Part shown: positions 17,291 through 43,169 of the stretch, one piece after another
How positions within the stretch are numbered: position 1 is the stretch's first letter
Layout: the number at the start of each line of letters is the position of its first letter
Translations under genes and position numbers: made by a program
The notes under the pieces: model-generated
Told to the model about the DNA's origin: nothing
The model's database searches: none
What the model saw: the letters and a program-made list of their open reading frames with translations, nothing else
Source: an uncultured Pseudomonadales bacterium
GTDB lineage: Bacteria > Patescibacteriota > Microgenomatia > UBA1400 > PJMF01
Reading direction: 5' to 3'
Length of the DNA: 64,000 nucleotides
Assembly: GCA_964412775.1 (NCBI GenBank)
Contig: CAYPPX010000001.1
Span: 65,122-129,121, forward strand

Positions 17291-18139
17291 TTGAATAGTA
17301 ATTTATATTATGGTATTTATTTTTATATAGAACTAAGACTTGTGACAATCAACAATTTAAGATCTCTTGAAAAATACAAAAACTGGTTTGATTTTTTGTG
17401 GTCAATGGCTGAAAAAGAAACTAAAGCAAGATATAAAAATGCTTTGCTTGGTTTTTCGTGGATGGTTATCAATCCAGTTTTGCAAATGTTAATTATTGGG
17501 ATTATTTTTCAGTTTTTTGTTTCTTTTCAAACCATAGACAACTATTATTTATTTTTGTTAGTTGGTTTATTAGTATGGAATTTTTTTTCATCAAGCTTGA
17601 GCCAAGTTTCTCCTGTTTTTATTCAGCAACGTTTTTTATTACAAAAAGCAAGTTTTTCTAGAGAGATTTTGCCACTTTCGGTTATTTTGTCGAATATGTT
17701 TCATATTATTGTTTCTCTTGTTTTACTTTTAGTTTATATTTTTATTTTTAATGGTTTTGTTTTTTCATTTGTTAAATTAGTGTTACTTCTTTTTTCAGTT
17801 ATTTGGTTGCTTATTTTTACTAGTGGATTGGGTTTGTTGACTTCATCTTTAAATGTCAAATACAGAGATGTAAGTTTTATGGTTCAAGCATCGTTACCAC
17901 TTGGTTTCTACTTAACGCCGATTATTTATGATGAAAGCATGTTGCCTGGCAGTATTAGGTGGTTATTATTCATTAACCCTTTGAGTTCAATTATTGCAAA
18001 TTTAAAATCTGTATTTTTATCAACTACTGTTTTATCTATTAATTACCAAATACTTAGTATTTTTGTGACAATTTTAATTTTATTTTTAGGCATTTTTGTT
18101 TTTTTTAGAAACAGTAAAAACTTTAGTGACTATGTTTAA
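17291..18139 (+). CDS. ABC-2 type polysaccharide/teichoic-acid export permease (Wzm/TagG-like)
   Basis: 'LWSMAEKETKARYKNALLGFSWMVINP' matches the Wzm/KpsM N-terminal signature, 6 TM; true start may be GTG at 17342 or ATG at 17405. Confidence 0.7.
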   Translation: MNSNLYYGIYFYIELRLVTINNLRSLEKYKNWFDFLWSMAEKETKARYKNALLGFSWMVINPVLQMLIIGIIFQFFVSFQTIDNYYLFLLVGLLVWNFFSSSLSQVSPVFIQQRFLLQKASFSREILPLSVILSNMFHIIVSLVLLLVYIFIFNGFVFSFVKLVLLLFSVIWLLIFTSGLGLLTSSLNVKYRDVSFMVQASLPLGFYLTPIIYDESMLPGSIRWLLFINPLSSIIANLKSVFLSTTVLSINYQILSIFVTILILFLGIFVFFRNSKNFSDYV

Positions 18140-18142
18140 TTT

Positions 18143-18871
18143 ATGAAAAAAAATGCTGTTATTTCTCTAAAGAACATTACTAAAGAATATACTTTAAGAG
18201 GGCATAGACCAACTTTAGTGGAAAGATTGCTTGGGAAATCTAAGTTGGAAAAAGTTGAAGCATTACATAATTTGAGTATTGATATTTTTCCTGGGCAAAA
18301 AGTAGGTATTGTTGGCTCAAATGGTTCAGGTAAAACTACTTTTTTAAAAATTATTTCTAATATTTCTCAACCCACATCTGGTGAAATGAAAGTTGTTGGT
18401 CGAGTTGTGTCAGTCATAGATTTGGAGGCTGGATTTCATCCAGATCTTTCAGGTAGAGAGAATATTATGATTAATGGCATGATTTTAGGTATGACTAAGA
18501 AAGAAATATTATCAAAAATGAATGAAATTCTTTCTTTTGCTGATATTGGTAGATTTATTGATGAACCAATATTTACTTATTCAAAGGGCATGAAACTTAG
18601 GTTGGGCTTTGCTATTGCAATTAGTAGTGATCCGGATATTTTTTTGCTTGATGAGATGATTGCTGTAGGTGATAAAGAATTTAAAGCCAAAACGGCAAAA
18701 AAAGTTGCTTCTTTTTTGAAGCAAGGTAAAGTGGTGGTTATTGCTAGTCATTTAATTGATTTTATTGGTCTTTCATGCAAAAGAATTGTTTGGTTGGAAA
18801 AAGGTAAAATTTTGGCAGATGGTGGTAAAGAAGTTGTAAAAAAGTACAAAAAATACAAAAGTTCTTTATAA
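18143..18871 (+). CDS. ABC-2 exporter ATP-binding protein (Wzt/TagH-like)
   Basis: Walker A GSNGSGKTT, Walker B FLLDEMIAVGD, 242 aa without C-terminal carbohydrate-binding domain. Confidence 0.85.
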   Translation: MKKNAVISLKNITKEYTLRGHRPTLVERLLGKSKLEKVEALHNLSIDIFPGQKVGIVGSNGSGKTTFLKIISNISQPTSGEMKVVGRVVSVIDLEAGFHPDLSGRENIMINGMILGMTKKEILSKMNEILSFADIGRFIDEPIFTYSKGMKLRLGFAIAISSDPDIFLLDEMIAVGDKEFKAKTAKKVASFLKQGKVVVIASHLIDFIGLSCKRIVWLEKGKILADGGKEVVKKYKKYKSSL

Positions 18872-18886
18872 ATTTTATTAATATAA

Positions 18887-20146
18887 ATGGAAAAAGTTTT
18901 TAAGAAAAAAATGTTTAATTTTTTTAGAAATAAGTACGACATTGTTATTAGCGCTCATGATTTTGGTTTGGGGCCAACTTCTATCATTTCTCAAACTTTA
19001 AAAAACCAAAATAAGTACAAATTTGGTTTGATAGGTAACAAAAACCAAGAAAATTTTATTAATAAACAGGGTTTTAAGGTAAAGTTATTGGCAGATCAGT
19101 ATGACTATTTAAATTCTAAAAATAGAGTCAAAGCCACAGTCTCATGTTTTGATCCGATGCTAGTTTTTTCTTCATGGAAAAGGGGTATTCCTGTTTTATA
19201 TATAGATAGTTTACTTTGGTTTTGGGATTTTGATGAAAAAAAATTACAAAAAACTTATGAAAAATTGTTTGCTTTGAGGGAAACTAGTAATCAAGATTTT
19301 GACTTTAGAGTTAAAGAAATAGTTGATTTTGATAGTCATTTACCTTTTGTTTTAGCACATTTATTTTCTACTCACTCTTTGATTCAACGTTTTGGTGGGT
19401 TAACGGAAAAAAGATTGAAGTTTATTAGAAAATTTAATAAGCAAATTAGTCTTTTTGGGGCTTTAGTTCCTAAAAAAAATAATTTAATTAAAGAAAAAGT
19501 TACTAAACCAGTTATTTATGTTCAACTTGGAGGTATGCTTAATCCAAATACTGGTTTAGATTTTAGTAAGAAATACGTTAATTATATTGCACAGATATTA
19601 GACCAAATTAATAAAAAAGATATTTATAAAGTTATTTTTAAGGTTAATTCTATTTTTGACAATTTAAAAAACAAATATAAACATTTAGATGTAATTGGTA
19701 ATTTATCATTTACTGAGCATATTTCCTTAATAAAAAACTGTGATTTTTTGATTTTGCAGCCAGGGCAACATGGTATTTATGAGTCTGTTTTTTTTAAAAA
19801 AAACATTTTTCTGTTACCGGAACAAACAACTTCTCATACTGTTCATGTTAAAGAAATGATTAAGAATGGCTTTGTGGTTGATCAGCATATGTTTTTTGAC
19901 TTTTATGATGCCAAAGCAAACAAGGAGAATACTGATTATTTGGTAAAAGGATTAAATCAGTTTAGAAGAGACAAAGTGAAGTTAATAAATAAAATTGAAG
20001 AATTTTTTCATAAAGATAAAAAACTTACAACCAAAGAGATTAAAACAAGATATCAAGTTACCAAAAGATTATTGGGTGATTTTGGTGGCAATGAAACTTT
20101 AATAAAGACTGCAGATTTATTTTTTAAAAAATTCGTTGATAATTGA
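18887..20146 (+). CDS. hypothetical protein (possibly glycosyl/glycerophosphotransferase-like)
   Basis: 419-aa soluble ORF in glycan cluster; no confident motif. Confidence 0.3.
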   Translation: MEKVFKKKMFNFFRNKYDIVISAHDFGLGPTSIISQTLKNQNKYKFGLIGNKNQENFINKQGFKVKLLADQYDYLNSKNRVKATVSCFDPMLVFSSWKRGIPVLYIDSLLWFWDFDEKKLQKTYEKLFALRETSNQDFDFRVKEIVDFDSHLPFVLAHLFSTHSLIQRFGGLTEKRLKFIRKFNKQISLFGALVPKKNNLIKEKVTKPVIYVQLGGMLNPNTGLDFSKKYVNYIAQILDQINKKDIYKVIFKVNSIFDNLKNKYKHLDVIGNLSFTEHISLIKNCDFLILQPGQHGIYESVFFKKNIFLLPEQTTSHTVHVKEMIKNGFVVDQHMFFDFYDAKANKENTDYLVKGLNQFRRDKVKLINKIEEFFHKDKKLTTKEIKTRYQVTKRLLGDFGGNETLIKTADLFFKKFVDN

Positions 20147-21025
20147 ATCAATTATTTTTTTGTCTACTTTATTTACAATTGTTACAGCAAATATTTTATC
20201 GCTTTTTTGAGACTCTTTGTTAAAAATGGGGAAGATAAACCCCGGTTCTTTTTTAATAAGTTTAGTTGATAAATATAACTTTTTTTTTGAATTTTGTTGT
20301 AGATGTTCCAATAGGATCGCTGTTAGTAAATCGTGAACTGCTGCTCCAGTATATTGGGTTTTTTCTAACTTTTCTGTAAAGAAAAACTTTTTGTTTTTTA
20401 TGTAATAGTTTAGGTATGGTTTAAAAAAAGTTTTTAAAGGTTCAATTTTTAAATCACTTAAATTGAGTTGAATTTTTTCTGTAATGTTAAGTGGTACTAA
20501 AACTATTTTTTCACTAAGTTTAAGTAAAACTTTTTCTACGGCGATTGGGTCCCAATAAAAGTTTGCTTCAGCGAGTGGCGTTGCGTTGCCAGGTGTAAGA
20601 ATAGCTCCTCCCATAATCAAAAGTTTATTGAGTTTTTTTAAAAAATTATTATTTTTTATTAACTTACTTAGGTTTGTTAGTGGACCAATTGAAAGATAGT
20701 CAAATTTGTCATTAAAACTGTTGTTATTAATTTGATTAACTCTGATGGGTTTTTTATTAATCCACTTATTGCCATGTATATGGTAAAAAGGTAAGAACTC
20801 ACCTTTAAGTGGTTGCTTTTCTCCTAAAAAAATCTCTATTTTTTTATCAGTTTTTAGTAAGCTTAAAAAATAACTAATTCTAGAAAGGCACTCTTCTCTA
20901 GAAAAAATTCCATAATTGGCAATAATTTTTATATTTTTATATTTTTTTGTTTTTATAAGGTAGTAAATTGCTAGTAAATCATCTGCACCAGCATCAGTAT
21001 CTACAACGATTGTTTTTACTTGCAT
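20117..21025 (-). CDS. nucleoside hydrolase (IU-NH family)
   Basis: N-terminal 'VVDTDAGADDLLAI' DxDxxxDD fingerprint of inosine-uridine nucleoside hydrolases; 302 aa. Confidence 0.7.
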   Translation of the reverse strand: MQVKTIVVDTDAGADDLLAIYYLIKTKKYKNIKIIANYGIFSREECLSRISYFLSLLKTDKKIEIFLGEKQPLKGEFLPFYHIHGNKWINKKPIRVNQINNNSFNDKFDYLSIGPLTNLSKLIKNNNFLKKLNKLLIMGGAILTPGNATPLAEANFYWDPIAVEKVLLKLSEKIVLVPLNITEKIQLNLSDLKIEPLKTFFKPYLNYYIKNKKFFFTEKLEKTQYTGAAVHDLLTAILLEHLQQNSKKKLYLSTKLIKKEPGFIFPIFNKESQKSDKIFAVTIVNKVDKKIIDSIINEFFKK

Positions 21026-21672
21026 TTATTTTCCAATTTTATACCTAAAAAATCTTTTAATTCATCAACTAAAATTGCTTGAAAACCCAACTTTTTGGCA
21101 GGCTCAATATCATTTTTATATGAGTCACCAACCATTAAAATCATTTTTGGGAAAAGTTTAGTTTCAGTTAAAACTTTTTTAAAAGGTGCTAGGTTGGGTT
21201 TTAAACTTTTTGTTTCGTTACAGTCAATTATTTTAGTAAAAGGTGAAAAAACAAGCTTTTTATTTTTCTTAAATCCAATTTTTTTTAGACATTTTTCTAG
21301 TTCAGCTTTAGGGGTATTTGAGAGAATTAAATGCTGATAATTATTAAGTTTTTCTAGTTGTTTGACTAGCTTTTTGTTTGGTTTTAGTAATTTACTCTTA
21401 TCAACTTTTTTTTCAACATAATTAATAACGTCTAGTTCTTTTTTATTCAGTTTTTTAGCCACTGCTTTACTCCAACGACCATGTTGTTTAATTAGCTGGT
21501 CAAATTCTTTAGTTGAAATTTTTTTATTTAAATTTTTATTTAGATAGTTGTAGTAGCCTTTTTTTAAAGCTTCCCCAACTTGGGGGTTAATATACAAAGT
21601 ATCGTCGAAATCCCAGACTATAACTCTAACTAGATTCCGTTTGATTATGTTTTTTATTTTTTTAAGTAACAT
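21016..21672 (-). CDS. HAD-superfamily hydrolase (nucleotidase-like)
   Basis: Motif I 'VIVWDFDDTLY', motif IV 'MVGDSYKNDI'. Confidence 0.65.
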   Translation of the reverse strand: MLLKKIKNIIKRNLVRVIVWDFDDTLYINPQVGEALKKGYYNYLNKNLNKKISTKEFDQLIKQHGRWSKAVAKKLNKKELDVINYVEKKVDKSKLLKPNKKLVKQLEKLNNYQHLILSNTPKAELEKCLKKIGFKKNKKLVFSPFTKIIDCNETKSLKPNLAPFKKVLTETKLFPKMILMVGDSYKNDIEPAKKLGFQAILVDELKDFLGIKLENKCK

Positions 21673-22779
21673 TTAAATTCTAGGAATATTTTCCAAGTGG
21701 GTGCTGTTTGAAACTAAGACAACTTTGGCATTTTTTTCAATTTCTTTGATGTCTTTAGTTCCCAAGTACCACATTGACCTAATTAAGCCACCTTTTAACT
21801 GGTTTAAAACAATATCGGCTGAACCTTTATATGGAACCAAAGCCTCAACTCCTTCTTCGAATTCTTTGTTTAGTTTTTGATTATTAAAAATAGATCTTTT
21901 AATTTTTCTTAAAATTTCTATAGGGTTCAGTTGTTCCCATGGTGTTTGATGTTTGTAAGCAGTGTCTGTGCACATTCCCCAAGAGTATTTATATTTTTTA
22001 CCATCTTTTTCAATGATTTCACCAGGGCACTCATCTGTGCCACTTAGTAAACCTCCAATCATCACTGCTTCAGCTCCAAAAGCAAATGCTTTGGGAATGT
22101 CACCTGAGTATTTAATTCCAGTATCAGAAATAATTGGAATATCATATTTTTTTGCTATTTGGTAACAATCCTCAACAGCACTTAGTTGTGGTCTACCTAC
22201 CCCAGTAACTAATCTAGTTGTACAGTGGGATCCACCTCCGATTCCAACCCTGATACTGTCAGCTCCAGCTTTGATTAGTTCTTTAGTTGCTTGTTGGGTT
22301 ACAACTAATGAAGCGCTGACTTTAATATCTTTAAAAGCATTTTTAATTTTGCTAATAAACTCAATTGTTTGAGTATTGTGGGCTTGACCTGTTTCTAGAG
22401 AAATTAAGTCAGCTCCAGCTTGAAGTAAAATTGAGACATCTTTTAGAGTAGTTGATTTGTTAAAAGAAATAGTCCCAGCAACCTTAACATTTTCTTTTTT
22501 TACTCTAGTAATTTGTTCTGCTTGGCTATTTATACTTTGAAAAGGATGGATAAAGCCTAATCCACCAGCTTTTCCAATCGTAATTGCCATTTTTTCACCA
22601 GTTACTCCAGGCATTGGGGCAGACACAATTGGTAAATCTAAGTAAAAATCTTTGGCAATTCTACCAGTAATTTTTATATTTTTCTTTTCATTGTCGACTA
22701 AAAAGTCAGACTTACCAGGTAAAAGTAAGACATCATCAAATGTTACTTCGTTAAAGTTGTTTGTTTTATCAATTTTCAT
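21673..22779 (-). CDS. IMP dehydrogenase/GMP reductase family protein (no CBS subdomain)
   Basis: 'FDDVLLLPG', '[26 protein letters not shown]', catalytic loop '[24 protein letters not shown]'; 368 aa. Confidence 0.75.
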
Positions 22780-24028
22780 TTACAATTCCAGTTTTTCTAG
22801 TTATATATATCGTTCCACTATTTATGCAATCAAATTGATAATTTGGCAAGTAGTATGTATAGTATCTTTCCATATTTGGGTAACAAGCTGTGTCTAAAAT
22901 TTGTTCATTCTGGTTTGTCATTTTTTCTTTTATTTTTGTTATTTCAGGAGAAAAAAACGTAAGTCTTAAAAAAGTAGAATAAATTAGAAACGATCCATAA
23001 AAGATAAAAATTATTTTTTTATTGGTTTCACTAAAAATATTATCAATGATTAATATGAAACTAAGCTGGATGATAATTGCTAAAGAAATTTGATAAGTTA
23101 GAACAGGGAATATATCTATAAATGGTTTGCTATAAAAAATAATAAATTGGATTATTGCAAAGATAACTAACCCTTTTTGCTTTTCTAAGATTTTTATTTT
23201 ATTTATTTTGATAATAGTGACGACTAATAATAGTAAAACAATAAAAATTATTATTTTGTAGTTTACTATTCCTTGGAAAAGACTTGTCCTGATTAATTCT
23301 AAAATAAAAGTTTTATCATAGTAAATCTGATTAAATTCATATCGGTAGTTTTCACCAAATAAAGCAGTGTAAATATTTTTAAAGTTAAATATCATGCTTG
23401 TAAAAAAACTAATCAAGATTGCTAAGGATGTATTTTTATTCTTTTGTAACAATGCTAATAGAAAGAAAGCTAAAAAATTTAGATAAAAAACATAGTGGGT
23501 TATTGTTCCTAAAGTTATTGTAATTATTAGTGAAATAGTTTTTATCTTTGTTGGTTTGCTATTTAAAAGATACAAGGAAATAATAAAAAACATTAAGTAC
23601 ATTGGGTAAGGTCTAGCTAGGTTGTAATATGTTAAAGTTACAACCGAAGTAGAGAATAAAAGAGCACTGAGTAGTATTGATTTTTTTGATTTATAAATAT
23701 TTTCACTAATTTTAATAATAAAAAAATAACTGACTGAAAGAAAAACTAAAGAAAGTGATCTTGAAATAAATTCTGAATGATAAGGAAATAAACTAAGATA
23801 ATTTTTTAAAGTAAAAAAATATAATGGGGGGTTTCCTATATCAAGGTTTTTTGAAAAAAAATTACTATTTTGGTTGTCTCTGGTTAATTCAAAAGAGAAA
23901 AATTCATCTCCAGTATAGGGTTGGTTAAAGTAAGAATTTCCAACCTTAAATAGTGAAAATAAAAATATCAAAAAAAGTAATATTAACTCTTTTTTTGAAT
24001 AATCAACTTTACTATTTAATTCTTGCAT
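22769..24028 (-). CDS. polytopic membrane protein, GT-C (ArnT/PMT-like) glycosyltransferase candidate
   Basis: about 11 TM segments, early 'YTGDEFF' DE-containing loop typical of GT-C enzymes. Confidence 0.4.
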   Translation of the reverse strand: MQELNSKVDYSKKELILLFLIFLFSLFKVGNSYFNQPYTGDEFFSFELTRDNQNSNFFSKNLDIGNPPLYFFTLKNYLSLFPYHSEFISRSLSLVFLSVSYFFIIKISENIYKSKKSILLSALLFSTSVVTLTYYNLARPYPMYLMFFIISLYLLNSKPTKIKTISLIITITLGTITHYVFYLNFLAFFLLALLQKNKNTSLAILISFFTSMIFNFKNIYTALFGENYRYEFNQIYYDKTFILELIRTSLFQGIVNYKIIIFIVLLLLVVTIIKINKIKILEKQKGLVIFAIIQFIIFYSKPFIDIFPVLTYQISLAIIIQLSFILIIDNIFSETNKKIIFIFYGSFLIYSTFLRLTFFSPEITKIKEKMTNQNEQILDTACYPNMERYYTYYLPNYQFDCINSGTIYITRKTGIVNEN

Positions 24029-24031
24029 AAA

Positions 24032-24892
24032 TTATTTAGTTTGTTTCTTTGCTATTAAAGTATAGCTAAGAGGCATTTTTTTTGTTGATTTTTCTAGTTT
24101 TTTAAAACTTAGTGAAAAATCTTCAGGGTGTTCTTCAAATGACACTATGGAAAATTTTGTTTTGACTAGTGTGTTTATAATTTCGGAAAGTTTATGGTAT
24201 TTACAGTATTGATTCGGAACTTTGTATTTATTTTTACCATAATAGTCTAGTGAAATATTATTTTGGTCTATGTTTTCATTAAAATATGATCTGTTAACTT
24301 TGATTTTTGTGATAGAGCTATTGTAGTCAAACATATGTAAGAGTGGATTCATTTCATTAATAATGATTTGGCCATTATTTTTTAGAATTAAACTGGTTTT
24401 TTTAAAAAAATCCTCAAGGTCTATCATCCATGGGAGTGTTCCAACAGAAATAAAAACTAGGTCAAATTTTTTCCCATTAAGTGCCCTTATTTTTAAAAAA
24501 TTATCTTTAATAAAATCGCAATTTTGTAAATTTATTGAATTTTTCAATTCATTAGCTTGGTCAATAAATTCTTTTGAGATATCTATTCCTAAACAGTAAC
24601 TTGCTCCTAGTTTTTTGATTGAAATTAACTCAACTCCGTTATTGCATGCTGGTTGGCAAACAGTTTTATTTTTAACTTTTAATTTTTTAAGGGCAATTAT
24701 TTGTTGTTGGTTTAGGCAAGAAAAGTTTTTTTCCCTTATTTTATTTAACCAATAGCTATGTTTTTCTTTTTTATGAAATGGTGAAACTGTGTTCCAAGCA
24801 ATTTCATTAGATTTATAGTAATGGTTGAAGTTTTTTTTACTGATCAAACTTTTAAGACCATTTTTGATTTTATTTTTAGTTGTATTTAGCAT
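24032..24892 (-). CDS. class I SAM-dependent methyltransferase
   Basis: 'CLGIDISKEFIDQA' (motif I-like) and 'FDLVFISVGTLPW' (post-I/II). Confidence 0.55.
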   Translation of the reverse strand: MLNTTKNKIKNGLKSLISKKNFNHYYKSNEIAWNTVSPFHKKEKHSYWLNKIREKNFSCLNQQQIIALKKLKVKNKTVCQPACNNGVELISIKKLGASYCLGIDISKEFIDQANELKNSINLQNCDFIKDNFLKIRALNGKKFDLVFISVGTLPWMIDLEDFFKKTSLILKNNGQIIINEMNPLLHMFDYNSSITKIKVNRSYFNENIDQNNISLDYYGKNKYKVPNQYCKYHKLSEIINTLVKTKFSIVSFEEHPEDFSLSFKKLEKSTKKMPLSYTLIAKKQTK

Positions 24893-24894
24893 TG

Positions 24895-26220
24895 TTAAAT
24901 AAAAAATAATTTTGGTTTTTTAAATATAAAGTCACCGCCAATAGTGCTGTTATAAGCACCTACGGCAAAGAAAACTATTAAATCATCTTTATTGACTTTT
25001 GGTAGATCTCCAACAAAGATTAAGTCATCTTCTTGGCATGATGAACCAAAAATTTGTGTTTTTAAATTTTCTTTTTGGTTGTTTAATTTAAGTTTATTAG
25101 TGTAAATCCTAACAAGGTTTGGTCGATAGTGAGTTAGTGGTAACATATTATTAGTAGCACTACAGGTAATCTTTTGTTTTTTATTTTCTGTTTTAATATC
25201 GAGTACATTGGTTATTAATATTTGGGCATCTTCGACAATAAATCTTCCAGGTTCTAAAATAAGCATTGGTTTTTTATTAGTAAAAGTATTTGCTAGCTCA
25301 CTTGATATAGCTACTATATATTTTTCTATTTCTTCGATTTTAGTTTTTAATTCGCTATTTGGTTGTGGAGCGTGGCTGGGAAAACCACCACCAAAATCAA
25401 TAAAATCCAAGTTGTTAAGTTTAGTGTCTTTAATGAACTTTTTAACCAAGATGGCTGCTTCTTTATATTTTTCAGGTTTGTAGTTGTTTGTTCCTAGATG
25501 CAAATGTAGGCCCTTAATTAATATTTTGTTTTTTTTGAGTCTGGTTAATGCGATTTTGGCCTCATTATTTTTGATAGAAAAGCCGAACCTACTGTTACTA
25601 TCAACTTTTAATCTTAGCCCCCAGCTAATTTGTTGTTGCTCTTTTTTAGTTAAGGATTTAATAATTTCAATTTCTGTTAAGTTATCAATATTAACAATGG
25701 CTCTTAATTTAGCCGCTTTTTTTAAAGAGTTAATTGTTTTTGCTGGTCCATTAAAAATAATTTTTTCATAGTTATGTTGATTCGCTAAAAGTAGCTCGTT
25801 TTCAGAAACAACTTCCGCCCAGAAATTTTTTTTAAAAAAACTATTACCAATTACTGAATAGTTGGTTTTGAAAGAGTAGGCTAATTGGTTATTTCCACCC
25901 CAATTTTTATTTAGAGAATTTTTAATTTTTGTGTAATTTTTAACAATAATACTTTTTTGAGTGACAAAAAAAGGCAAAGATTGTTGCTTTAAAAGTTTTT
26001 TTAAAGCAATTTCATTTTTGCCTATGTTAGTAAAAAAACTAAAATTTTTATTATTGTTTTTTTTATAAAAATAGGTCTTATTTAAGATAGATTTAGTGAT
26101 AAACTTAATCATAAAACTATGAACCATATCATACAACAAATATTTGGCAGTAAAAGAATAGTTAACAATCGATCTATTAAAAATTTTATTAATCATTTTA
26201 GTAAAGGTGACAATTGGCAT
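24895..26220 (-). CDS. PLP-dependent decarboxylase, Orn/DAP/Arg decarboxylase (alanine-racemase fold) family
   Basis: 'AYSFKTNY' (PLP-Lys region), 'FIDFGGGFPS', 'EPGRFIVEDA', 'GAYNS'; 5' end overlaps divergent gene by about 100 nt, so the true start may be internal (for example 26196). Confidence 0.65.
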   Translation of the reverse strand: MPIVTFTKMINKIFNRSIVNYSFTAKYLLYDMVHSFMIKFITKSILNKTYFYKKNNNKNFSFFTNIGKNEIALKKLLKQQSLPFFVTQKSIIVKNYTKIKNSLNKNWGGNNQLAYSFKTNYSVIGNSFFKKNFWAEVVSENELLLANQHNYEKIIFNGPAKTINSLKKAAKLRAIVNIDNLTEIEIIKSLTKKEQQQISWGLRLKVDSNSRFGFSIKNNEAKIALTRLKKNKILIKGLHLHLGTNNYKPEKYKEAAILVKKFIKDTKLNNLDFIDFGGGFPSHAPQPNSELKTKIEEIEKYIVAISSELANTFTNKKPMLILEPGRFIVEDAQILITNVLDIKTENKKQKITCSATNNMLPLTHYRPNLVRIYTNKLKLNNQKENLKTQIFGSSCQEDDLIFVGDLPKVNKDDLIVFFAVGAYNSTIGGDFIFKKPKLFFI

Positions 26221-36842: not shown

Positions 36843-36856
36843 ATTTAAATTTTATT

Positions 36857-38575
36857 TTACTTTAATACTAAAAATCTATCCATGAGAAGACAATCAATTT
36901 CAGTTTTCAGAAAACAATTAATTGCATTTTCAGGATTATTAACAATTGGTTCACCTCTAACATTAAACGAAGTATTGATGATGACTGGTATTCCAGTTTT
37001 TTTCTTATAAGCATCTATTAAGTCATAGTAAAGTTTATTTTCTTTTCTATTAATGCTTTGTAATCTACCTGTCCCATTAACATGGACGACAGATGGGATA
37101 TCTTTTGCTCCTTTTTTGGTAAAGGGGTAGACTAATAACATGTATTTAGCTAGAGGTGATAGTGGTTTATCTGCTTCAAAAAAATCATGAACGTATTCTT
37201 CCAAAATAACTGGGGCAAATGGTCTAAATAGTTCTCTCATTTTAACTTTTTCATTAAGAATGTCTTTCATATCACTACTAGTCGCAGCAGCTAAGATGCT
37301 TCTACTGCCCAGAGCTCTTGGTCCCCATTCAACCCTGCCTTGAAACCAACCAATTACTTTTTTATCTATAATGAGATCGCTTAGTAAATCTAGTAACTCT
37401 TTATCATTTTTATAATATTTATACTTTAGTCCAAATCTTTTTAACTCTGTTTCTATTTCTTCTTTTGTGTAGCCTGGACCAAGATAGGGAGTAAATGTTT
37501 TTGGATCAAAAGATTTAAGTTTTTTTTGTCCTAATAGTTCTGGGTTTTGGTTGAGGTAGAGTGCTGCTCCCATCGCTCCACCAGAATCTCCTGGGGCTGG
37601 AGGAATATAGAGTTTTTTAAATGGTGTATTTGAGAGTATTCTGCCATTCATTACAGAATTTAAAACCACGCCACCAGCCATACATAAGTTGTTAGATTTA
37701 TATTTTTTGTGTACTTTATTTAATAAATTAATAACGACTTCTTCAGTTTTATATTGAAGCGCTGCAGCAATATCCTCGTGATGAGTTTCAATTTTACTTT
37801 CTTTTGTCCTAGTTGGAAAACCAAAAAGCTCTTCCATTTTTTTAGATGACATGTGGTTTGACCAACCATAATCAAAATATTTCATGTTTAGGGAGTAGCT
37901 TCCGTCACTATGGACTTTGATTAGTTCATCAAATTTATCTAAAAATGGTTGATGTTTTCCATAAGCAGCTAGCCCCATGACCTTATATTCAGCATCATTG
38001 ACCTCAAAGCCCAAGTAAGCAGTAATAGTGCTGTATAAAAGACCTAATGAGTGAGGAAATCTAATTTCTTTATCCACTCTAATGTTGTTTCCTTCACCAA
38101 AACCAATGGTTGTCGAGGCCCATTCTCCAACACCATCAACAGTTACAATAACCGATTTATCGAATCCTGAGAGATAATAGGTACTGGCGGCATGAGATAA
38201 ATGGTGTGGAGAAAAAAACACTTTGCCATCATAACCAAGTTCTTTTTTTAAGATTTTGTTAATATTTAGTTTTTGGTTTAACCATGACCCTGTATTTTCT
38301 AGAAAGACCTTAAGACTAAAGGGGAAATACTCTAGATGTTGACTAATTAGTCTTTCAAATTTCCAAATTGGTTTTTCATAAAAGGCTATAGCGTCAAGTT
38401 CGTTTATGTTTAAACCACCTTCTTTGAGACAATATTCAATAGCTAAGTGTGGAAAACCATTGTCATGTTTTTCTCTAGATAGGCGTTCTTCTTCAACGGC
38501 AGCCACTATTTTGCCATCAACTACTAAACAAGCGGCTGAGTCATGGTAAAAACATGATATTCCAAGTATTTTCAT
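36857..38575 (-). CDS. carbamoyltransferase (NodU/CmcH family)
   Basis: 'MKILGISCFYHDSAACLVVDGKIVAAVEEERLSREKHDNGFP' N-terminal ASKHA-like fold, 572 aa, His-containing motifs. Confidence 0.85.
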   Translation of the reverse strand: MKILGISCFYHDSAACLVVDGKIVAAVEEERLSREKHDNGFPHLAIEYCLKEGGLNINELDAIAFYEKPIWKFERLISQHLEYFPFSLKVFLENTGSWLNQKLNINKILKKELGYDGKVFFSPHHLSHAASTYYLSGFDKSVIVTVDGVGEWASTTIGFGEGNNIRVDKEIRFPHSLGLLYSTITAYLGFEVNDAEYKVMGLAAYGKHQPFLDKFDELIKVHSDGSYSLNMKYFDYGWSNHMSSKKMEELFGFPTRTKESKIETHHEDIAAALQYKTEEVVINLLNKVHKKYKSNNLCMAGGVVLNSVMNGRILSNTPFKKLYIPPAPGDSGGAMGAALYLNQNPELLGQKKLKSFDPKTFTPYLGPGYTKEEIETELKRFGLKYKYYKNDKELLDLLSDLIIDKKVIGWFQGRVEWGPRALGSRSILAAATSSDMKDILNEKVKMRELFRPFAPVILEEYVHDFFEADKPLSPLAKYMLLVYPFTKKGAKDIPSVVHVNGTGRLQSINRKENKLYYDLIDAYKKKTGIPVIINTSFNVRGEPIVNNPENAINCFLKTEIDCLLMDRFLVLK

Positions 38576-38868
38576 TAATACATACTTTCATTAAAATTAT
38601 TTGTATATTTTGCTGCTGACCATTGGGATTTTTTATTATTTATTTCAAGGAACTTTTTACCAAAAAATGAAGCAACAAGCTTGGTTAATCCAAAACCAAT
38701 CAGGTAAGCAATAAATAAACTAACAAAAGAAACAGTAAAAGTTCCAGCTAGTTCTATCTTTTTTAGATTTTTTTTGACTTTGGTAACGTATTTTTCTAGT
38801 AAAGGGTATTTAACTAAAAAATTTTCAAATCTGTTTTTAATTTTTGTAGCAATAGATATTTTTTTCAT
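38575..38868 (-). CDS. small membrane protein (possible SxtJ-like partner of carbamoyltransferase)
   Basis: 97 aa with one hydrophobic helix; stop overlaps carbamoyltransferase start. Confidence 0.3.
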   Translation of the reverse strand: MKKISIATKIKNRFENFLVKYPLLEKYVTKVKKNLKKIELAGTFTVSFVSLFIAYLIGFGLTKLVASFFGKKFLEINNKKSQWSAAKYTNNFNESMY

Positions 38869-38955: not shown

Positions 38956-39933
38956 TTACTTTGAGTTTTCTTCTTTTTCAATCCATTGATAAAGGTGTTT
39001 TAGGCCTTTTTTCAAACTAATTGAAGGCTCCCACTTGAGGTATTTTCTGATTAAAGTGTTATCACTACTTCTACCTCTAACACCTTTTGGAGCATCAAGT
39101 TTATAGTTCTTTTTTATTTTAATTTTTGCAATGTCTTCAATAATTTTTGTTAGTTGGTTAATTGAGACCATTTCTTCACTTCCTAGATTAATTGGCTCTC
39201 GAATATCACTATGAGTAATTAAGTCTATACCTTTAACACAGTCGTCTATGTACATGAAACTTCTGGTTTGTTTGCCATCACCCCAAATTTCTATTTCATA
39301 TGATTTGTTTTTTTGGGCCTCAATAATTTTTCTAGTTAAAGCTGCTGGAGCTTTTTCTCTACCAGTGTTGTAGTCACCATTTGGTCCATAGACATTATGA
39401 AACCTAGCTACTCTGGTTTCTAGACCGTAGTCTTCCATGAAGTGTCTACACATTCTTTCACTGAATAGTTTTTCCCAACCATAACCATCTTCTGCCATTG
39501 CAGGATAAGCATCGGTTTCTTTTAGACCTTTATTATTAGCACTTTTTTGTTTTTCAGCTGCATAAACACAAGCAGAGGAGGAAAAAAAATATCTTTTTAC
39601 TTTTTCCTCTTTGGCAGCCATTAGTAGATGAGTGTTAATTAGGACGCTTAACATACACTCAGCTTTGTTGTTTTCTATAAAACCAATTCCACCCATATCA
39701 GCAGCTAGGTTGTAAACCTCATCAACACCTTTTACTGCCTTAAAGCAGTTTTTTTTCTCTGATAAATCTAAAACAATGTTTTCAACCTCACTATCTAGCT
39801 GGTGCCATTTTTTTAGTGGCTTAATATCCACAGCTCTAATTTGTTTTATTCCTTTTTTTTTGAAATATTTGACAAGGTGACCACCAATAAAACCACCAGC
39901 CCCAGTAATTAAAATTTTAGTATTTTTATTCAT
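38956..39933 (-). CDS. NAD-dependent epimerase/dehydratase (extended SDR)
   Basis: 'ILITGAGGFIGGHLVKYF' Rossmann motif, Tyr region 'YGWEKLFSE'; 325 aa. Confidence 0.8.
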   Translation of the reverse strand: MNKNTKILITGAGGFIGGHLVKYFKKKGIKQIRAVDIKPLKKWHQLDSEVENIVLDLSEKKNCFKAVKGVDEVYNLAADMGGIGFIENNKAECMLSVLINTHLLMAAKEEKVKRYFFSSSACVYAAEKQKSANNKGLKETDAYPAMAEDGYGWEKLFSERMCRHFMEDYGLETRVARFHNVYGPNGDYNTGREKAPAALTRKIIEAQKNKSYEIEIWGDGKQTRSFMYIDDCVKGIDLITHSDIREPINLGSEEMVSINQLTKIIEDIAKIKIKKNYKLDAPKGVRGRSSDNTLIRKYLKWEPSISLKKGLKHLYQWIEKEENSK

Positions 39934-39959
39934 AAGTTAAAGAGATGTTAACACAATAT

Positions 39960-42542
39960 TTATTTTTCTGAATATATTAAATTAGCAACATTAAAGTATC
40001 CGTATTGGTAAAATTGTTTTTTTTCAATATTTTCTATTGTTTGGAAACATTCCTGATGTGGATGTTGGTAGGGATAGGTGTTAACACATTGTTCAAATGC
40101 TTGTTTTGCCAGTTCCGGTTTGTTTAAAAATAAATAAATATTTCCTGGTTGTAGAGCTACCAAATAGTTATCAGGAATAATTTTTACCATTAAAGTTGTT
40201 AATTCTATGGCTAATTTTTCTTCTTCAGGACTAATATCTTCTTTTAATAATAATTCTTCAGCTTGTTTTTGAAAGATTTTGGTTATTGCAAATCTTTCTT
40301 GTCTATCAAATTCGGTAAAATCTGGGTAACTTGAATAAATTTCTTCTGTATCAATCCAAAAGTTAGCAAGATAAATTGATTCTATTAGTTTTTTTTCATT
40401 AACTAAACGTTTAATCTCATTTGCAAAAATTTTACTAAAGTCATGAGCAACTTCTGTTACTAAAATAGGGTTAGCAGTAATAATTGTTGTTAAATCAATT
40501 TTTAGTTGTTCTAAATCGATGTTTTCAATTTTGTTTTTAGTGATTAGTTTTTTGATAGTGTCAAGGTATTTATATAAAAAGTTGCCTTTGTTTGTTTGCC
40601 ACATATCTATCTCTTGGACTGAGAATTCTCTAAAGAAATTAATTTGATTATTTATTAGTTCAGCATCATTTATAGAGAGAATAGAAGATTGGTGAGTGCC
40701 CCAAATCCATGGGTTAATTTCTCTAGCTTTTTTGTAAAGTGTGACTGATTTTGTTGGTTTTTCAATAAAAATTTTATCTGCCAAGATGACACAACTATCC
40801 GCAAGTTCTTTGATTCTGTTGTTATTAAATATCCACTGGTTTTTATTACTCAAAGACTTATCAAGCATTTTTAAACTAAGTTCTAAGTCTTTCTCGGCTA
40901 GGTCTAATTGGTTTGTTTTTAAGTAGTAGTCAAAGTTATCTGAGTTTATTTTTTGCCATGGATCTATTTCATAGAGTTTGTTTCTTAGTTCTGCTAGTTT
41001 TTCTTCTTCATTTGTGTGAAGTTTTTTTGAAATTAAAAAACTATAAATTGTTGAATGATTTTGGTAAATTGATTCTAGTTTTGGATAAAGTTCCTCTTTT
41101 AACTCATTTTTGTAGATTTCTTGATGCCAATAAAAATAGGGGAAAAACCTAAAAGCTTTTTCGGTGTCACCAGCAACTATTTTTGTATCAGTTATAAAGT
41201 AAAGCAGCATCAGTGTTATGGGTATAGTTGTTAATAAAATAAAAAGAAATTTTGCAAATTTTATAATATTTTTTTTCACTAACCGTTGTTCAAAACTGAT
41301 TTCTTTAACCAAGATTGCTAATAGTATTAAACTAATTGAGAATATACCAACAAAATTCCAGTCAAAATCAAATAAGACATTAAGGTAGGAACTAAGGAGT
41401 GATAACCATATACAAAAAAGTAGGCCATTTGTATTTGTTGATTTATTTTTAGAGAAAATATTTTTAAGTTCTTGATAATACTTTCCATTGTTTGTTATAG
41501 CTATAAAAGGCTGATAAATAAAGTATATTAAGCTTATTCCACCGATTAGACCAAGCTCTGATAGTGAATCTAAAACAAAGTTGTGAGCAGAATTTGTTGT
41601 TAGTTGAGGAGAGTTCTTGTATCTTTCATTTGCGATTTGAAATGTTCCTGGTCCAGAACCAAAAAGTAGATGATCTTTTAATATATAAATGGCTTGTAAC
41701 CAGTAATATGGTCTAGGCTCTGTGTTAATTGGTTTACAAATTTTGTTATCTAGATAGTTTATTGGACAGTAAAAATCTGGTTTAACTAAACTAATACTAG
41801 AAAATAATAGTTTTAAAAATAAAACAGAACAAAATAGTATTTCTATAATTTTATGAATTTTACTAATTTTGATGTTTTTTTTTGCAAAAAGCATTCTTAG
41901 AGCAACAACCTCAATTAAACCAAGGAAAACCGCTGTTCTACCAAAGCTTAGGAGTAGTGCAAAAGAAAAGAGTACAGCTAAATATTTTAAAATTTTTTGA
42001 GGAATAATCTCACTAGTTTTTTTATCAGGGTTATTTGCTAGCCACCAAGTGATTGGAATGACTAATAGCAGTAATGAAGCAAGGTGATTGTGACCATAGG
42101 TTGAGTATAGAATATTCATTCCAGGCAGCAGAGATGCTAATTTGTGGTTAAATTGAAAAATTATGCTAATGATTGTTAAATCAAAAGCAAGAAAAATCAG
42201 TCCAGTTGTAATGATATTTAAATTGTTTCGCTTATATAAAACTAATGTCGCAATAAATACTATTATTGCAAATACATAAGTATTTATTTTTATAAGTGTT
42301 AGTGGAACACTAATGGTAAAGATTGCACTTAGGGTTAAAGTTATTGTAAAAAAAAATATTCTTTTTACCAAAGTTGAGTGGTAATTAAAAACATTCCAAT
42401 CTCCATACTTAAGGCTAGTAAAGGTAAGTAGAATGGTTCCTATACCAATTATAAAAAATTGAAGGTATGAATTACCAAGCAACGTTAATAATACTAAGTA
42501 AGTAAAAATAAAAAACAAAATTAGTATTTTTTTTAGGTTCAT
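39960..42542 (-). CDS. large polytopic membrane protein with O-antigen ligase-like (Wzy_C) domain and C-terminal soluble repeat region
   Basis: About 12 TM helices in N-terminal half, C-terminal about 400 aa helical/TPR-like; 860 aa. Confidence 0.45.
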   Translation of the reverse strand: MNLKKILILFFIFTYLVLLTLLGNSYLQFFIIGIGTILLTFTSLKYGDWNVFNYHSTLVKRIFFFTITLTLSAIFTISVPLTLIKINTYVFAIIVFIATLVLYKRNNLNIITTGLIFLAFDLTIISIIFQFNHKLASLLPGMNILYSTYGHNHLASLLLLVIPITWWLANNPDKKTSEIIPQKILKYLAVLFSFALLLSFGRTAVFLGLIEVVALRMLFAKKNIKISKIHKIIEILFCSVLFLKLLFSSISLVKPDFYCPINYLDNKICKPINTEPRPYYWLQAIYILKDHLLFGSGPGTFQIANERYKNSPQLTTNSAHNFVLDSLSELGLIGGISLIYFIYQPFIAITNNGKYYQELKNIFSKNKSTNTNGLLFCIWLSLLSSYLNVLFDFDWNFVGIFSISLILLAILVKEISFEQRLVKKNIIKFAKFLFILLTTIPITLMLLYFITDTKIVAGDTEKAFRFFPYFYWHQEIYKNELKEELYPKLESIYQNHSTIYSFLISKKLHTNEEEKLAELRNKLYEIDPWQKINSDNFDYYLKTNQLDLAEKDLELSLKMLDKSLSNKNQWIFNNNRIKELADSCVILADKIFIEKPTKSVTLYKKAREINPWIWGTHQSSILSINDAELINNQINFFREFSVQEIDMWQTNKGNFLYKYLDTIKKLITKNKIENIDLEQLKIDLTTIITANPILVTEVAHDFSKIFANEIKRLVNEKKLIESIYLANFWIDTEEIYSSYPDFTEFDRQERFAITKIFQKQAEELLLKEDISPEEEKLAIELTTLMVKIIPDNYLVALQPGNIYLFLNKPELAKQAFEQCVNTYPYQHPHQECFQTIENIEKKQFYQYGYFNVANLIYSEK

Positions 42543-43169
42543 CTATATAAAAATTTTAAGGGCTTTTCTTAGAAGATAAATAACCATTTTTACTATAAGT
42601 TTGTATTGTTCTTTTTCGTTTTTTAAGATTGTTGCTTGTTCTAGTTTTTCCCATTGTTTAATATCAGAGTGCCTTTTTTCTGCTAAGCTCCAGTCAGAAA
42701 AAATTCCTGGTTTAACTTTTTCTCTAAAGTTTTTCCAGGTTTTGGGAAGTAAGTTAGCTTCTTTTACAGGTAGCGGCCTTGGTCCCACAAAACTCATTTC
42801 ATTTTTCAAAATGTTTAGTAATTGAGGTAATTCATCTATTCCTGATCTAGAAAAGAACCTCCCAAAGCCGACGAATCTTGGATCATTGTGAATTTTAAAC
42901 ATTGGTAAAGGGGCTTCATTAAACTTTAAATATTTATGTTTAGTTATACTTGCATTTTTTTCCATTGTTCTAAATTTATAAATTACAAATTCTTTACCGT
43001 TCAGTCCACTTCTTTTCTGTTTAAAAATTATAGGAAAGCCAGAAGTAACATATATAGTTAAGCCAACTAAAATGAATAAAGGAGAGAGCAACACAAGTAG
43101 ACAAATTGAAAAACAGAGGTCAAAGACTCTTTTTCTCCAAGATTGGTAGTATGGGTTTATTGCTATCAT
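42543..43169 (-). CDS. undecaprenyl-phosphate sugar phosphotransferase (bacterial sugar transferase, WbaP/EpsL-like small form)
   Basis: 'KQKRSGLNGKEFVIYKFRTM', 'DPRFVGFGRFFSRSGIDELPQLLNILKNEMSFVGPRP' canonical motif. Confidence 0.85.
   Translation of the reverse strand: MIAINPYYQSWRKRVFDLCFSICLLVLLSPLFILVGLTIYVTSGFPIIFKQKRSGLNGKEFVIYKFRTMEKNASITKHKYLKFNEAPLPMFKIHNDPRFVGFGRFFSRSGIDELPQLLNILKNEMSFVGPRPLPVKEANLLPKTWKNFREKVKPGIFSDWSLAEKRHSDIKQWEKLEQATILKNEKEQYKLIVKMVIYLLRKALKIFI

Follow-up and report, generated by a model that had tools for sequence, protein, structure and literature searches.

A conserved surface-glycan locus in a candidate phyla radiation bacterium and the IMPDH-like enzyme of its putative decorating module

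What does a bacterium of the candidate phyla radiation (CPR) assemble with a long, tightly packed cluster of glycan genes, and by what chemistry is the product decorated? The question is raised by positions 17291-43169 of a 64,000-nucleotide stretch of contig CAYPPX010000001.1 (hereafter the window, meaning the whole stretch that was analysed), in which 24 open reading frames (ORFs) stand almost without intergenic space in six transcription units (Table 1). We conclude that this locus is a real, conserved cluster for the assembly and export of a decorated cell-surface glycan in a CPR bacterium (Candidatus Pacebacteria), and that the assembly is of a known kind, dependent on an ATP-binding cassette (ABC) transporter and of the type that builds S-layer glycans. 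Embedded within it is a previously undescribed, widely conserved module consisting of an O-methyltransferase, a pyridoxal phosphate (PLP)-dependent decarboxylase, an enzyme resembling IMP dehydrogenase (IMPDH) and GMP reductase (GMPR), and a HAD phosphatase. As an explanation of the whole, we favor an ABC transporter-dependent glycan locus with ligase-type Wzy_C proteins and an embedded amine-installing module, at a probability of roughly 70%.

A recurrent locus for glycan assembly and export

A sequence-only reading of the window had proposed a contiguous, dedicated surface-glycan locus running from the Wzm/Wzt exporter genes to the initiating transferase of a small-genome organism, and both proposals are borne out. 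The limits are exact: 17291 is the earliest possible start (TTG) of the Wzm ORF, and the initiating transferase, on the minus strand, begins at 43169, with the proviso that a 99%-identical public contig (L001) calls Wzm as 244 aa, placing its start near 17405. Proteins 97-100% identical to those of the window are present in the Candidatus Pacebacteria metagenome-assembled genome GCA_020849455.1. The G+C content is 0.27-0.32 over the locus, compared with 0.35-0.41 in most surrounding intervals and a peak of 0.47 at the 23S rRNA gene. This drop, together with the recurrence of the same gene set in synteny elsewhere, marks the locus as more than a chance assemblage. A scan for promoters and terminators gave no enrichment over shuffled sequences.

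Domain annotation by Pfam and NCBIfam profile searches recovered every gene class named in the sequence-only reading, with the reservations that a third SGNH protein is recognizable by motif only and that a GT-C-like protein has no direct Pfam match. Several genes had been overlooked, namely those for the IMPDH/GMPR-like protein, the HAD phosphatase, a nucleoside hydrolase, a 419-aa protein, a DUF4330-like protein and a 97-aa membrane protein.

Instead of scattering as housekeeping genes might, the locus genes remain together in relatives, largely in synteny down to approximately 40-60% protein identity. In L001 identity is 83-100% per gene, and a distant relative on a 303-kb metagenome contig (L089) carries 19 collinear locus genes at 36-80% amino-acid identity, its available stretch ending in the carbamoyltransferase gene. 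Shuffled versions of the gene set were found in L002/L090, L005, L007, L009 and L169-L173. The proteins anchoring some of the distant loci are labeled by NCBI as belonging to Shapirobacteria, Woesearchaeota, Pacearchaeota or Methanoperedens, the other loci being unlabeled; the Woesearchaeota labels belong to L005/L006 and the Pacearchaeota label to L171. The locus type may be common to CPR bacteria and to DPANN archaea, unless binning errors account for these labels.

A census was taken by scanning metagenomes with the Methyltransf_24 subfamily as anchor and clustering all ORFs of 40 non-redundant sources; its counts are lower bounds, many loci being cut by contig ends. Besides the anchor itself (40/40 by construction), a PLP decarboxylase was present in 35 of the 40 sources (22 of fold-III and 13 of group-II type), Wzt in 29, Wzm in 26, Wzy_C and family 2 glycosyltransferases (GT2) in 22 each, a DUF4330-like protein in 21, an IMPDH-like protein in 18 and a HAD protein in 16. 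A QueC-like PP-loop ATPase occurred in 12 sources, GT26 in 11, the initiating transferase in eight and the carbamoyltransferase in seven, all seven being loci of the IMPDH-like type. What emerges is a recurrent locus type of at least 40 non-redundant examples, with a core comprising Wzm/Wzt, Wzy_C and its DUF4330 partner, and the O-methyltransferase with the PLP decarboxylase.

Some related loci carry further genes of their own. Directly upstream of the marker methyltransferase in L133, L144, L150, L152, L161 and L163 lies a gene of the RGP (reversibly-glycosylated-polypeptide) family, the family of UDP-arabinopyranose mutase, which would hint at arabinofuranose in the polymers of those loci. 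L007/L127 (the anchor of which is labeled Shapirobacteria), L099, L103, L116-L118 and L170 have three to four radical-SAM genes among the core genes, some of them of B12-binding or SPASM type, and a GH39 glycosidase is present in L007, L116/L127 and L170.

The proposed ABC export route is supported by adjacent Wzm and Wzt genes (separated by 3 nt), an initiating transferase and glycosyltransferases, and no Wzx. Matches of Wzm to the NCBIfam galactan Wzm/KpsM models lie below cut-off, as do those of Wzt to the equivalogs for galactan Wzt (191 bits) and for TagH (171 bits, where 320 bits would be needed). Wzt consists of the nucleotide-binding domain alone, without the carbohydrate-binding module that reads a cap in O9a-type systems; of the chain-termination modes, only a coupled mode like that of Klebsiella O2a would fit such a protein. 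Neither a Wzx/MOP flippase nor a chain-length regulator is present among the 24 ORFs, the only MOP protein of the window being MurJ at 54814, 11 kb away, and Wzy-dependent assembly is rejected because the locus has no flippase. Pfam searches of the locus likewise returned no TagO/WecA (PF00953), TagB/TagF (PF04464), LCP ligase or glycerophosphotransferase. We considered a wall teichoic acid pathway, with which the locus shares only GT26 and a TagH-like ATPase, and rejected it for want of TagO, TagB/F and LCP.

The decarboxylase module and its IMPDH-like enzyme

The hallmark gene encodes a cation-dependent O-methyltransferase of the Methyltransf_24 family with 321 clusters of relatives. Sequence searches of the PDB returned nothing and profile searches only weak matches; an AlphaFold2 (AF2) model (pLDDT 89.4) led by Foldseek to O-methyltransferases of the catechol/CCoA type. 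Among the highest TM-scores (0.66-0.67) is that of MeT1 (6G80) of Mycobacterium hassiacum, which is annotated as a methyltransferase without further detail and presumably acts on a methylmannose polysaccharide. At the 5' end, the longest ORFs of this gene and of the divergent decarboxylase have 102 nt in common, and in the annotation of a near-identical public contig the two genes still overlap head-to-head by 9 nt. The start of the decarboxylase probably lies at approximately 26127, as the protein is called as 410 aa in L001.

The decarboxylase, earlier listed among the decorating enzymes, does not stand alone: it is part of a conserved module and shares its operon with the IMPDH-like, HAD and nucleoside hydrolase genes. 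Its best solved relative is FslC, an N-citrylornithine decarboxylase (7KH2, 2.4e-30), followed at a distance by the best diaminopimelate (DAP) decarboxylase (2.8e-17) and BtrK (2J66, 7.1e-8); the substrates of FslC and BtrK are amino acids already conjugated through the side chain. In sister loci the fold-III enzyme is replaced non-orthologously by a group-II decarboxylase closest to histidine decarboxylase and MfnA. A Dph2-type radical-SAM enzyme (236 bits against the archaeal Dph2 equivalog cut-off of 203) lies between the nucleoside hydrolase and Wzt genes of L002 (13565-14821; L090, 3878-5134). An idea of histamine or imidazole chemistry, drawn from the histidine-decarboxylase-like enzyme and Dph2 in L002/L090, is in our view speculation.

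The closest NCBIfam model to the HAD protein is pyrimidine 5'-nucleotidase, below cut-off, and a PDB search was uninformative; all 16 HAD genes of the census fall in IMPDH-like loci. The nucleoside hydrolase is intact, its DTDxGxDD and HD motifs aligning with those of plant NRH1 (4KPN), and is found in four of the 40 loci (the window, L089, L090 and L005). Elsewhere, other accessory genes accompany the IMPDH-like gene: in L009 a DUF4406 protein, which we take to be of an N-deoxyribosyltransferase-like family, and in L169 a phosphoribosyl pyrophosphate (PRPP) synthetase, an enzyme like hypoxanthine-guanine phosphoribosyltransferase (HGPRT) and a sugar isomerase.

The IMPDH-like protein has no CBS domain and falls below every NCBIfam equivalog cut-off (304 bits against 481.5 for TIGR01302, and 195 against 397 for the best GMPR model). 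Its catalytic Cys is kept in GGGSHCTTR, and the GMPR triad positions are occupied (C186, T188 and E309), with a GMPR score below cut-off; the water-activating Arg-Tyr dyad of the flap is absent. Thus, the protein is IMPDH-like in its fold and nucleophile yet fails a defining feature of an IMPDH, the dyad.

These departures are characteristic of an entire clade. Neighbor joining of 136 sequences gathers the 57 locus-associated proteins into a single clade that admits no outsider from the 79 other IMPDHs, which are canonical sequences from a scan of genome contigs; L009 was the only true locus relative among the matches listed. A His precedes the catalytic Cys in 55 of the 57, and the dyad is likewise absent in 55, whereas 72 of the 79 others possess the dyad, 64 keep both the dyad and an Ile before the Cys, and 53 have YRGMGS. 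The group with canonical motifs includes CBS-less proteins from other Patescibacteria. Five substrate-contact motifs are changed in the clade, with substitutions at the ribose, phosphate and base contacts (SDTGI, MIGG, and SWGMCT or SAGMCS), and its members combine a motif set ([18 protein letters not shown] and SWGMCT) with an extended, Lys-rich flap without Arg-Tyr. All ten distinct clade contexts that were looked up lie in glycan loci, with HAD present in nine (directly adjacent in eight) and a PLP decarboxylase beside the IMPDH-like gene or one gene away in all ten. The automatic labels 'GMP reductase' and 'IMP dehydrogenase' on these proteins should be treated with caution, and the clade, found only in these loci, is a clean candidate for a new activity in a very well-studied enzyme family.

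Certain haloarchaeal CBS-less IMPDH homologues (L015, L017, L021-L023, L048 and L064) also have a His before the catalytic Cys, and five of the seven have no Arg-Tyr dyad. In the tree these proteins are separate from the CPR locus clade, and their surroundings showed no locus genes.

The position occupied by the IMPDH-like gene is filled differently in other loci. Beside the methyltransferase-decarboxylase pair stands one of four third partners, which never overlap: IMPDH-like/HAD (18), the QueC-like PP-loop ATPase (12), a PaaK/CapK-like enzyme (four) or an ATP-grasp ligase (two); this exclusivity has P ~6e-8 when phylogeny is ignored. The QueC-like ATPase often occurs with a PqqD-like protein, and the PaaK/CapK-like adenylating enzyme with a NitT/TauT-type importer. 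Clean swaps of the third partner distinguish otherwise syntenic loci (L163 versus L161, and L144 versus L152).

It is tempting to speculate that IMPDH-like and HAD together form a neofunctionalized, NAD-dependent replacement for the ATP-dependent ligases, passing a Cys-bound intermediate to an amine or otherwise processing a phosphorylated, nucleotide-like precursor, after which the decarboxylase and O-methyltransferase would finish an amine-bearing glycan substituent. We regard this specific chemistry as rather doubtful. Were it true, it would constitute an undescribed chemistry of glycan decoration and a hallmark of CPR envelopes, with a possible reach to DPANN archaea suggested by the NCBI labels of three relatives; the resulting primary amines could even be attachment points for sortase substrates.

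Proposed pathway, acceptor and rival readings

What is observed is the gene content, the conservation of the locus, the structure of the IMPDH-like clade and its altered motifs; the order of steps, the substituent chemistry and the acceptor given here are proposals. The small phosphoglycosyl transferase would prime polyprenyl phosphate, on which GT26, GT4 and the two GT2 enzymes would assemble the chain on the cytoplasmic side, with GDP-L-galactose or GDP-L-gulose among their donors, supplied by a homologue of GDP-mannose 3,5-epimerase (GME). Cytoplasmic tailoring by the NodU-type O-carbamoyltransferase and the cation-dependent O-methyltransferase would be followed by export of the lipid-linked polymer through Wzm/Wzt. 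Outside the membrane, the PMT_2-like GT-C protein may add a branch and the three anchored SGNH proteins may process ester groups, before the Wzy_C proteins, acting as ligases and not as polymerases, pass the glycan to its final acceptor. The module would install a substituent that bears an amine and stems from a decarboxylated amino acid, a proposal made by analogy with the Campylobacter jejuni capsule and on the basis of the FslC-like decarboxylase; in this reading the IMPDH-like/HAD pair would process a phosphorylated, nucleotide-like intermediate where sister loci have an ATP-dependent ligase. The predicted polymer features are therefore L-galactose or L-gulose, O-methyl and O-carbamoyl groups, and a substituent from a decarboxylated amino acid.

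The GT-C-like protein has at least eight hydrophobic segments (two pairs overlap, making the count approximate), the first of which is followed by an acidic motif, GDEFF. Of 30 remote relatives gathered by exhaustive homology search, 24 match PMT_2, a word-based search having returned the same species only. The match to DUF4330, weak in the window, is clear in L009 (2.6e-12); a profile search found no PDB relative of this family, and a single-sequence AF2 model was unusable (pLDDT 39). The second GT2 (30040-30888) is 78-80% identical in L002 and L089. The 860-aa Wzy_C protein bears a weak TPR_8 match (1.6e-4) in an architecture shared by L173, and its sequence does not separate an O-oligosaccharyltransferase from a WaaL-type ligase. 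The 419-aa protein, with homologues in L001 and L089 alone, matches Epimerase_2 at E = 1.2e-3 and cytosylglucuronic acid (CGA) synthase at 26 bits over 39 residues, and has no PDB relative by sequence or profile search. A blasticidin-like role for it, of a free base with a GT-B enzyme, was dropped given that short match and its restriction to the lineage. The class-I methyltransferase at 24032-24892 also has homologues in L001 and L089 alone.

Of the decorations that had been anticipated, carbamoylation is well supported at family level: both NodU/CmcH domains are matched, and a score below the NodU equivalog cut-off (185 against 1000) limits the assignment to the family. A small single-pass membrane ORF recurs directly upstream of the carbamoyltransferase in L109 (18742-18885) and L005 (21009-21119), with weak similarity (E = 3e-4 to 0.014) to the 97-aa protein of the window; it may tether the soluble enzyme to the membrane. 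What had been called an SDR (short-chain dehydrogenase/reductase) epimerase is indeed an SDR and can be refined to a GME homologue, with the next SDR classes at no more than 95 bits against 306. YGWEK (the SDR YxxxK motif), SSACVY and GREKAPAA are visible in its sequence, the latter two presumably representing the catalytic Cys/Lys acid-base pair of the Arabidopsis enzyme. This assignment predicts a GDP-L-galactose/L-gulose donor and, with it, L-Gal or L-Gul residues. Probable O-acetylation, conversely, is not supported, because no acetyl donor enzyme (AT3, MBOAT or LbH acetyltransferase) is present in the locus, AT3 occurring solely in the relative L169. The catalytic domains of all three SGNH proteins are predicted to lie outside. 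In the 515-aa protein, two of the four hydrophobic segments listed overlap, leaving three distinct ones, and the motifs are GTSQ...DVIH; the 401-aa protein has GGSS...DHVH. The 369-aa protein, of a family present in six census loci, shows the GDS without a clear DxxH or a Pfam match and is a plausible SGNH member.

Directly upstream of the locus are genes for four paralogous surface proteins, which share a post-anchor motif ([12 protein letters not shown]). The proteins at 12457-13701 and 13748-15082 have poly-Ser runs of 14-16 residues, and that at 16366-17214 has a short Ser run; three of the four carry LP[EKQ][TS]G (LPETG, LPKSG or LPQSG) followed by a hydrophobic tail, and the protein at 15092-16255 is without both poly-Ser run and sorting signal. 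A Cys-rich module of ~45 aa (ECGYTPC...LICVTA..GD.YCS.PEYE.ACI) is repeated in three, the Cys-rich region of 16366-17214 being different, and the PT repeat is the only part with a Pfam family. The idea that the glycan is attached to these Ser-rich neighbors keeps its premise, adjacency; the link itself is possible only, as no LPXTG/poly-Ser protein stands beside any of the 39 related loci. Surface proteins are slightly favored as acceptor in our analysis because the S-layer scheme uses a Wzy_C(+TPR) transferase and the 860-aa protein has its weak TPR match.

As the LPXTG/poly-Ser proteins adjoin the locus in the window genome alone, a wall- or lipid-linked polymer is a strong rival. According to this reading, which is possible and which we take seriously, the product is a secondary cell-wall polysaccharide or lipoglycan on peptidoglycan or lipid and the LPXTG proteins are mere neighbors. 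The combination of a GT-C protein with an ABC exporter recalls the streptococcal rhamnose polysaccharides. The best NCBIfam matches of Wzm/Wzt are exporters of mycobacterial galactan and teichoic acid, and GT26 is typical of the linkage units of wall polymers. Set against this are the missing LCP ligase, TagO, TagB/F and glycerophosphotransferase and, in favor of protein, the pairing of Wzy_C with TPR, as seen in established O-oligosaccharyltransferases that act on proteins (PMC2943079). It is very improbable that one Wzy_C is instead a true Wzy polymerase working by a block mechanism, with the ABC pump serving another product. The presence of two Wzy_C proteins and Bac_transf-type initiation, typical of Wzy-dependent pathways (PMC2943079), would suit such a scheme, yet flippase and chain-length regulator are lacking in the locus and Wzm/Wzt are conserved with it in 26-29 of the 40 sources.

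Other alternatives concern the module. CPR bacteria depend on nucleoside salvage, and IMPDH-like, HAD and nucleoside hydrolase could represent plain purine salvage, for example of GTP for GDP-sugars, without any glycan chemistry. GDP-sugar use by the locus through the GME homologue, the GMP reductase label given by the NCBI pipeline, and the PRPP synthetase and HGPRT/XPRT-like genes beside the IMPDH-like gene of L169 would all accord with this. We nevertheless consider it unlikely: all ten clade contexts that were looked up are glycan loci, usually with HAD, and the clade has altered substrate contacts and no dyad where other CPR bacteria keep a canonical IMPDH; ligases stand in for the IMPDH-like/HAD pair at the corresponding place of other loci; and no guaA gene is nearby. 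A further possibility is that some of the locus genes produce a purine or deazapurine nucleoside like toyocamycin or tubercidin, exported by the ABC-2 pump. The HAD phosphatase would then have its counterpart in ToyI, which we take to be that of the toyocamycin pathway, and Wzt also resembles exporters of the DrrA/NodI type, with QueC-like genes present in sister loci. L169 additionally combines a phosphoribosyltransferase, an IMPDH/GMPR-domain enzyme and a phosphatase, in parallel with TubE/TubD/TubG and ToyH/ToyE (PMC6112128). This we judge improbable, because the genes are always embedded among those for initiating transferase, glycosyltransferases and Wzy_C and because the nucleoside hydrolase would destroy such a product; moreover, there is no GTP cyclohydrolase, QueD or QueE, and QueC-like and IMPDH-like genes never occur together.

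Returning to the favored reading, an ABC-exported glycan with ligase-type Wzy_C proteins and an amine-installing module, a number of observations weigh against it in addition to the lone occurrence of the LPXTG proteins and the missing LCP ligase. The two Wzy_C proteins are indistinguishable in role from their sequences, and the three SGNH proteins could equally well be esterases or transacylases, the roles given to them being guesses. The exclusivity of the ligases is confounded by the shared ancestry of the loci, and in loci of the IMPDH-like type there is neither a transaminase nor an obvious amine-coupling enzyme. Finally, the IMPDH-like enzyme retains 45-50% identity (estimated from alignments) to true IMPDH cores, and the gene neighborhood of L169 is also compatible with purine salvage.

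Beyond the locus, the window contains further genes listed in Table 1. The 23S and 5S genes are without a 16S gene in the 64 kb, an unlinked rRNA arrangement, and tRNA-Ile(UAU) is uncommon in bacteria; together with MurJ, PBP1 and PilN, we take these to be CPR-like features. A MacB-type exporter with an HlyD-like adaptor is encoded although the host is presumed to have no outer membrane.

Table 1 Features of the locus and its surroundings in the window, with the transcription unit (TU) of each locus gene
Position	Strand	TU	Feature	Evidence or remark
2546-4882	+		VirD4/TrwB-like coupling ATPase	
9256-12208	-		MacB-type ABC exporter with HlyD-like adaptor	
12250-12323	-		tRNA-Ile, anticodon UAU	between MacB-type exporter operon and surface-protein genes
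12457-17214	-		four paralogous surface proteins, possible acceptors	N-terminal anchor, Cys-rich repeats, Pro/Thr linkers
17291-18139	+	1	Wzm, ABC-2 permease	PF01061 ABC2_membrane 1.1e-16; at least three distinct hydrophobic segments (two of the four listed overlap)
18143-18871	+	1	Wzt, exporter ATPase	PF00005 ABC_tran 7.8e-23; 242 aa
18887-20146	+	1	soluble protein of 419 aa without a known family; lineage-specific, possibly GT-B-like	weak matches only
20117-21025	-	2	nucleoside N-ribohydrolase (IU-NH family), last gene of six-gene operon	PF01156 1.7e-38
21016-21672	-	2	HAD-IA phosphatase	HAD_2 3.1e-16; DFDDT motif
21673-22779	-	2	CBS-less IMPDH/GMP-reductase-like enzyme, 368 aa	PF00478 1.7e-99
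22769-24028	-	2	probable GT-C (PMT_2/ArnT-like) polytopic membrane protein, lineage-specific	
24032-24892	-	2	class-I SAM methyltransferase (Methyltransf_31/11), lineage-specific	PF13847 8.9e-12
24895-26220	-	2	fold-III PLP decarboxylase, FslC/DAP-decarboxylase-like	Orn_Arg_deC_N 1.3e-22
26119-26796	+	3	Methyltransf_24 cation-dependent O-methyltransferase, hallmark gene	PF13578 1e-13
26798-27703	+	3	GT2 glycosyltransferase	PF00535 1.1e-16
27700-29178	+	3	Wzy_C (O-antigen-ligase-like) polytopic protein, 492 aa	PF04932 5.1e-15; ~12 hydrophobic segments
29159-30034	+	3	membrane-anchored DUF4330-like protein, core partner of Wzy_C	weak DUF4330 match
30040-30888	+	3	GT2 glycosyltransferase	PF00535 6.4e-25
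30891-32438	-	4	membrane-anchored SGNH hydrolase/acyltransferase-fold protein, 515 aa	Lipase_GDSL_2 4.4e-12, residues 330-491
32435-33601	-	4	GT4 glycosyltransferase (TuaH-like)	PF00534 3.6e-10; TuaH 68 bits, below cut-off
33604-34317	-	4	GT26 WecG/TagA-family glycosyltransferase	PF03808 1.8e-39
34321-35430	-	4	anchored SGNH-like protein, 369 aa, tentative	'FLGDSYS' block-I motif; one N-terminal hydrophobic segment
35502-36707	+	5 (single gene)	anchored SGNH hydrolase-fold protein, 401 aa	Lipase_GDSL_2 4e-6 (below Pfam cut-off); one N-terminal hydrophobic segment
36857-38575	-	6	NodU/CmcH-type O-carbamoyltransferase	Carbam_trans_N 2.7e-92 (310 bits); Carbam_trans_C 1.4e-67 (227 bits)
38575-38868	-	6	97-aa membrane protein upstream of carbamoyltransferase	no family
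38956-39933	-	6	GDP-mannose 3,5-epimerase (GME) homologue (SDR)	2.7e-90, 306 bits, full length against Arabidopsis GME 2C59
39960-42542	-	6	Wzy_C with ~400-aa C-terminal region, 860 aa, candidate glycan transferase/ligase	PF04932 2.5e-12
42543-43169	-	6	small (PglC-size) polyprenyl-phosphate phosphoglycosyl transferase, initiating	PF02397 Bac_transf 9e-45; one hydrophobic segment
45627-49070	+		tRNA-Ala(UGC), full-length bacterial 23S and 5S rRNA	
59917-61107	-		GH18 chitinase-like enzyme	

Comparison with known systems

CPR bacteria are episymbionts, and contact with the host is presumably made by their surface polymers. Targeted full-text literature searches on CPR glycan chemistry (CPR with carbamoyltransferase) and on IMPDH with nucleoside hydrolase in O-antigen clusters returned nothing relevant.

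The closest parallel is the O-glycosylation of S-layer proteins in Geobacillus stearothermophilus NRS 2004/3a and Paenibacillus alvei, in which WbaP-type initiation, Wzm/Wzt and a terminal O-methyltransferase are combined with a Wzy_C O-oligosaccharyltransferase having TPR on or beside it (PMC2943079). The pairing of an ABC exporter with Wzy_C proteins, previously singled out as unusual, is thus that of a published scheme. Like these slg clusters, the locus possesses an initiating transferase, cytoplasmic glycosyltransferases, an O-methyltransferase, Wzm/Wzt and Wzy_C with a weak TPR match in an envelope of Gram-positive type, and its GT26 parallels the ManNAc-transferase-like enzyme of the P. 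alvei cluster (PMC2943079). It differs in having neither rml nor any other nucleotide-sugar operon save the GME homologue, and no S-layer gene was identified. What it adds is considerable: the carbamoyltransferase, three SGNH proteins, the GT-C protein, a second Wzy_C with its DUF4330 partner, and the module of decarboxylase, IMPDH-like, HAD and nucleosidase.

With the ABC-dependent pathways of Escherichia coli O8/O9a, Klebsiella O2a, TagGH and mycobacterial galactan, the locus shares a chain built on a lipid carrier, ABC-2 export and subsequent ligation, and it shares GT26 with the linkage units of wall polymers. Unlike them, it has a Wzt without carbohydrate-binding domain, is devoid of WecA/TagO, TagB/F and LCP, and belongs to an organism presumed to have no outer membrane and no lipid A-core acceptor.

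For the module, the nearest analogy is the C. jejuni HS:2 capsule, where the PLP decarboxylase Cj1436 makes an amine phosphate, the ATP-dependent amidoligase Cj1438C couples it to a uronic acid and the phosphatase Cj1435 finishes the process (PMC12409886); PRPP-dependent ribosylation followed by dephosphorylation also occurs in C. jejuni capsules (PMC12409886, PMC12096443). In both cases the locus of an ABC-exported polysaccharide joins a PLP decarboxylase to a phosphatase and to a coupling enzyme (putative in the CPR loci), which together would add an amine substituent through a phosphorylated intermediate; PRPP and phosphatase chemistry within a glycan locus is a further point in common. The CPR loci differ in the family of their decarboxylase, which is fold-III or group-II, in the use by half of them of an IMPDH-like protein instead of a ligase, and in that no UDP-glucose dehydrogenase or transaminase was seen. 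Cj1436 itself presumably belongs to the aminotransferase-fold class of decarboxylases. Unlike BtrK and FslC and the decarboxylases of other NRPS-independent siderophore (NIS) pathways, the enzyme described here sits in a glycan locus and not in an aminoglycoside or siderophore cluster.

The IMPDH-like protein itself has in common with IMPDH, GMPR and ToyE/TubD the TIM-barrel fold, the Cys-Thr-Thr-Arg loop and the ribose-binding Asp, and it is CBS-less and of comparable length (368 aa, against 385 aa for TubD) (PMC6112128). As in the ToyE/TubD pathways, the enzyme has a phosphatase as its companion, to which L169 adds a phosphoribosyltransferase. It stands apart from all of these enzymes in forming a separate clade, the members of which are always embedded in glycan loci.

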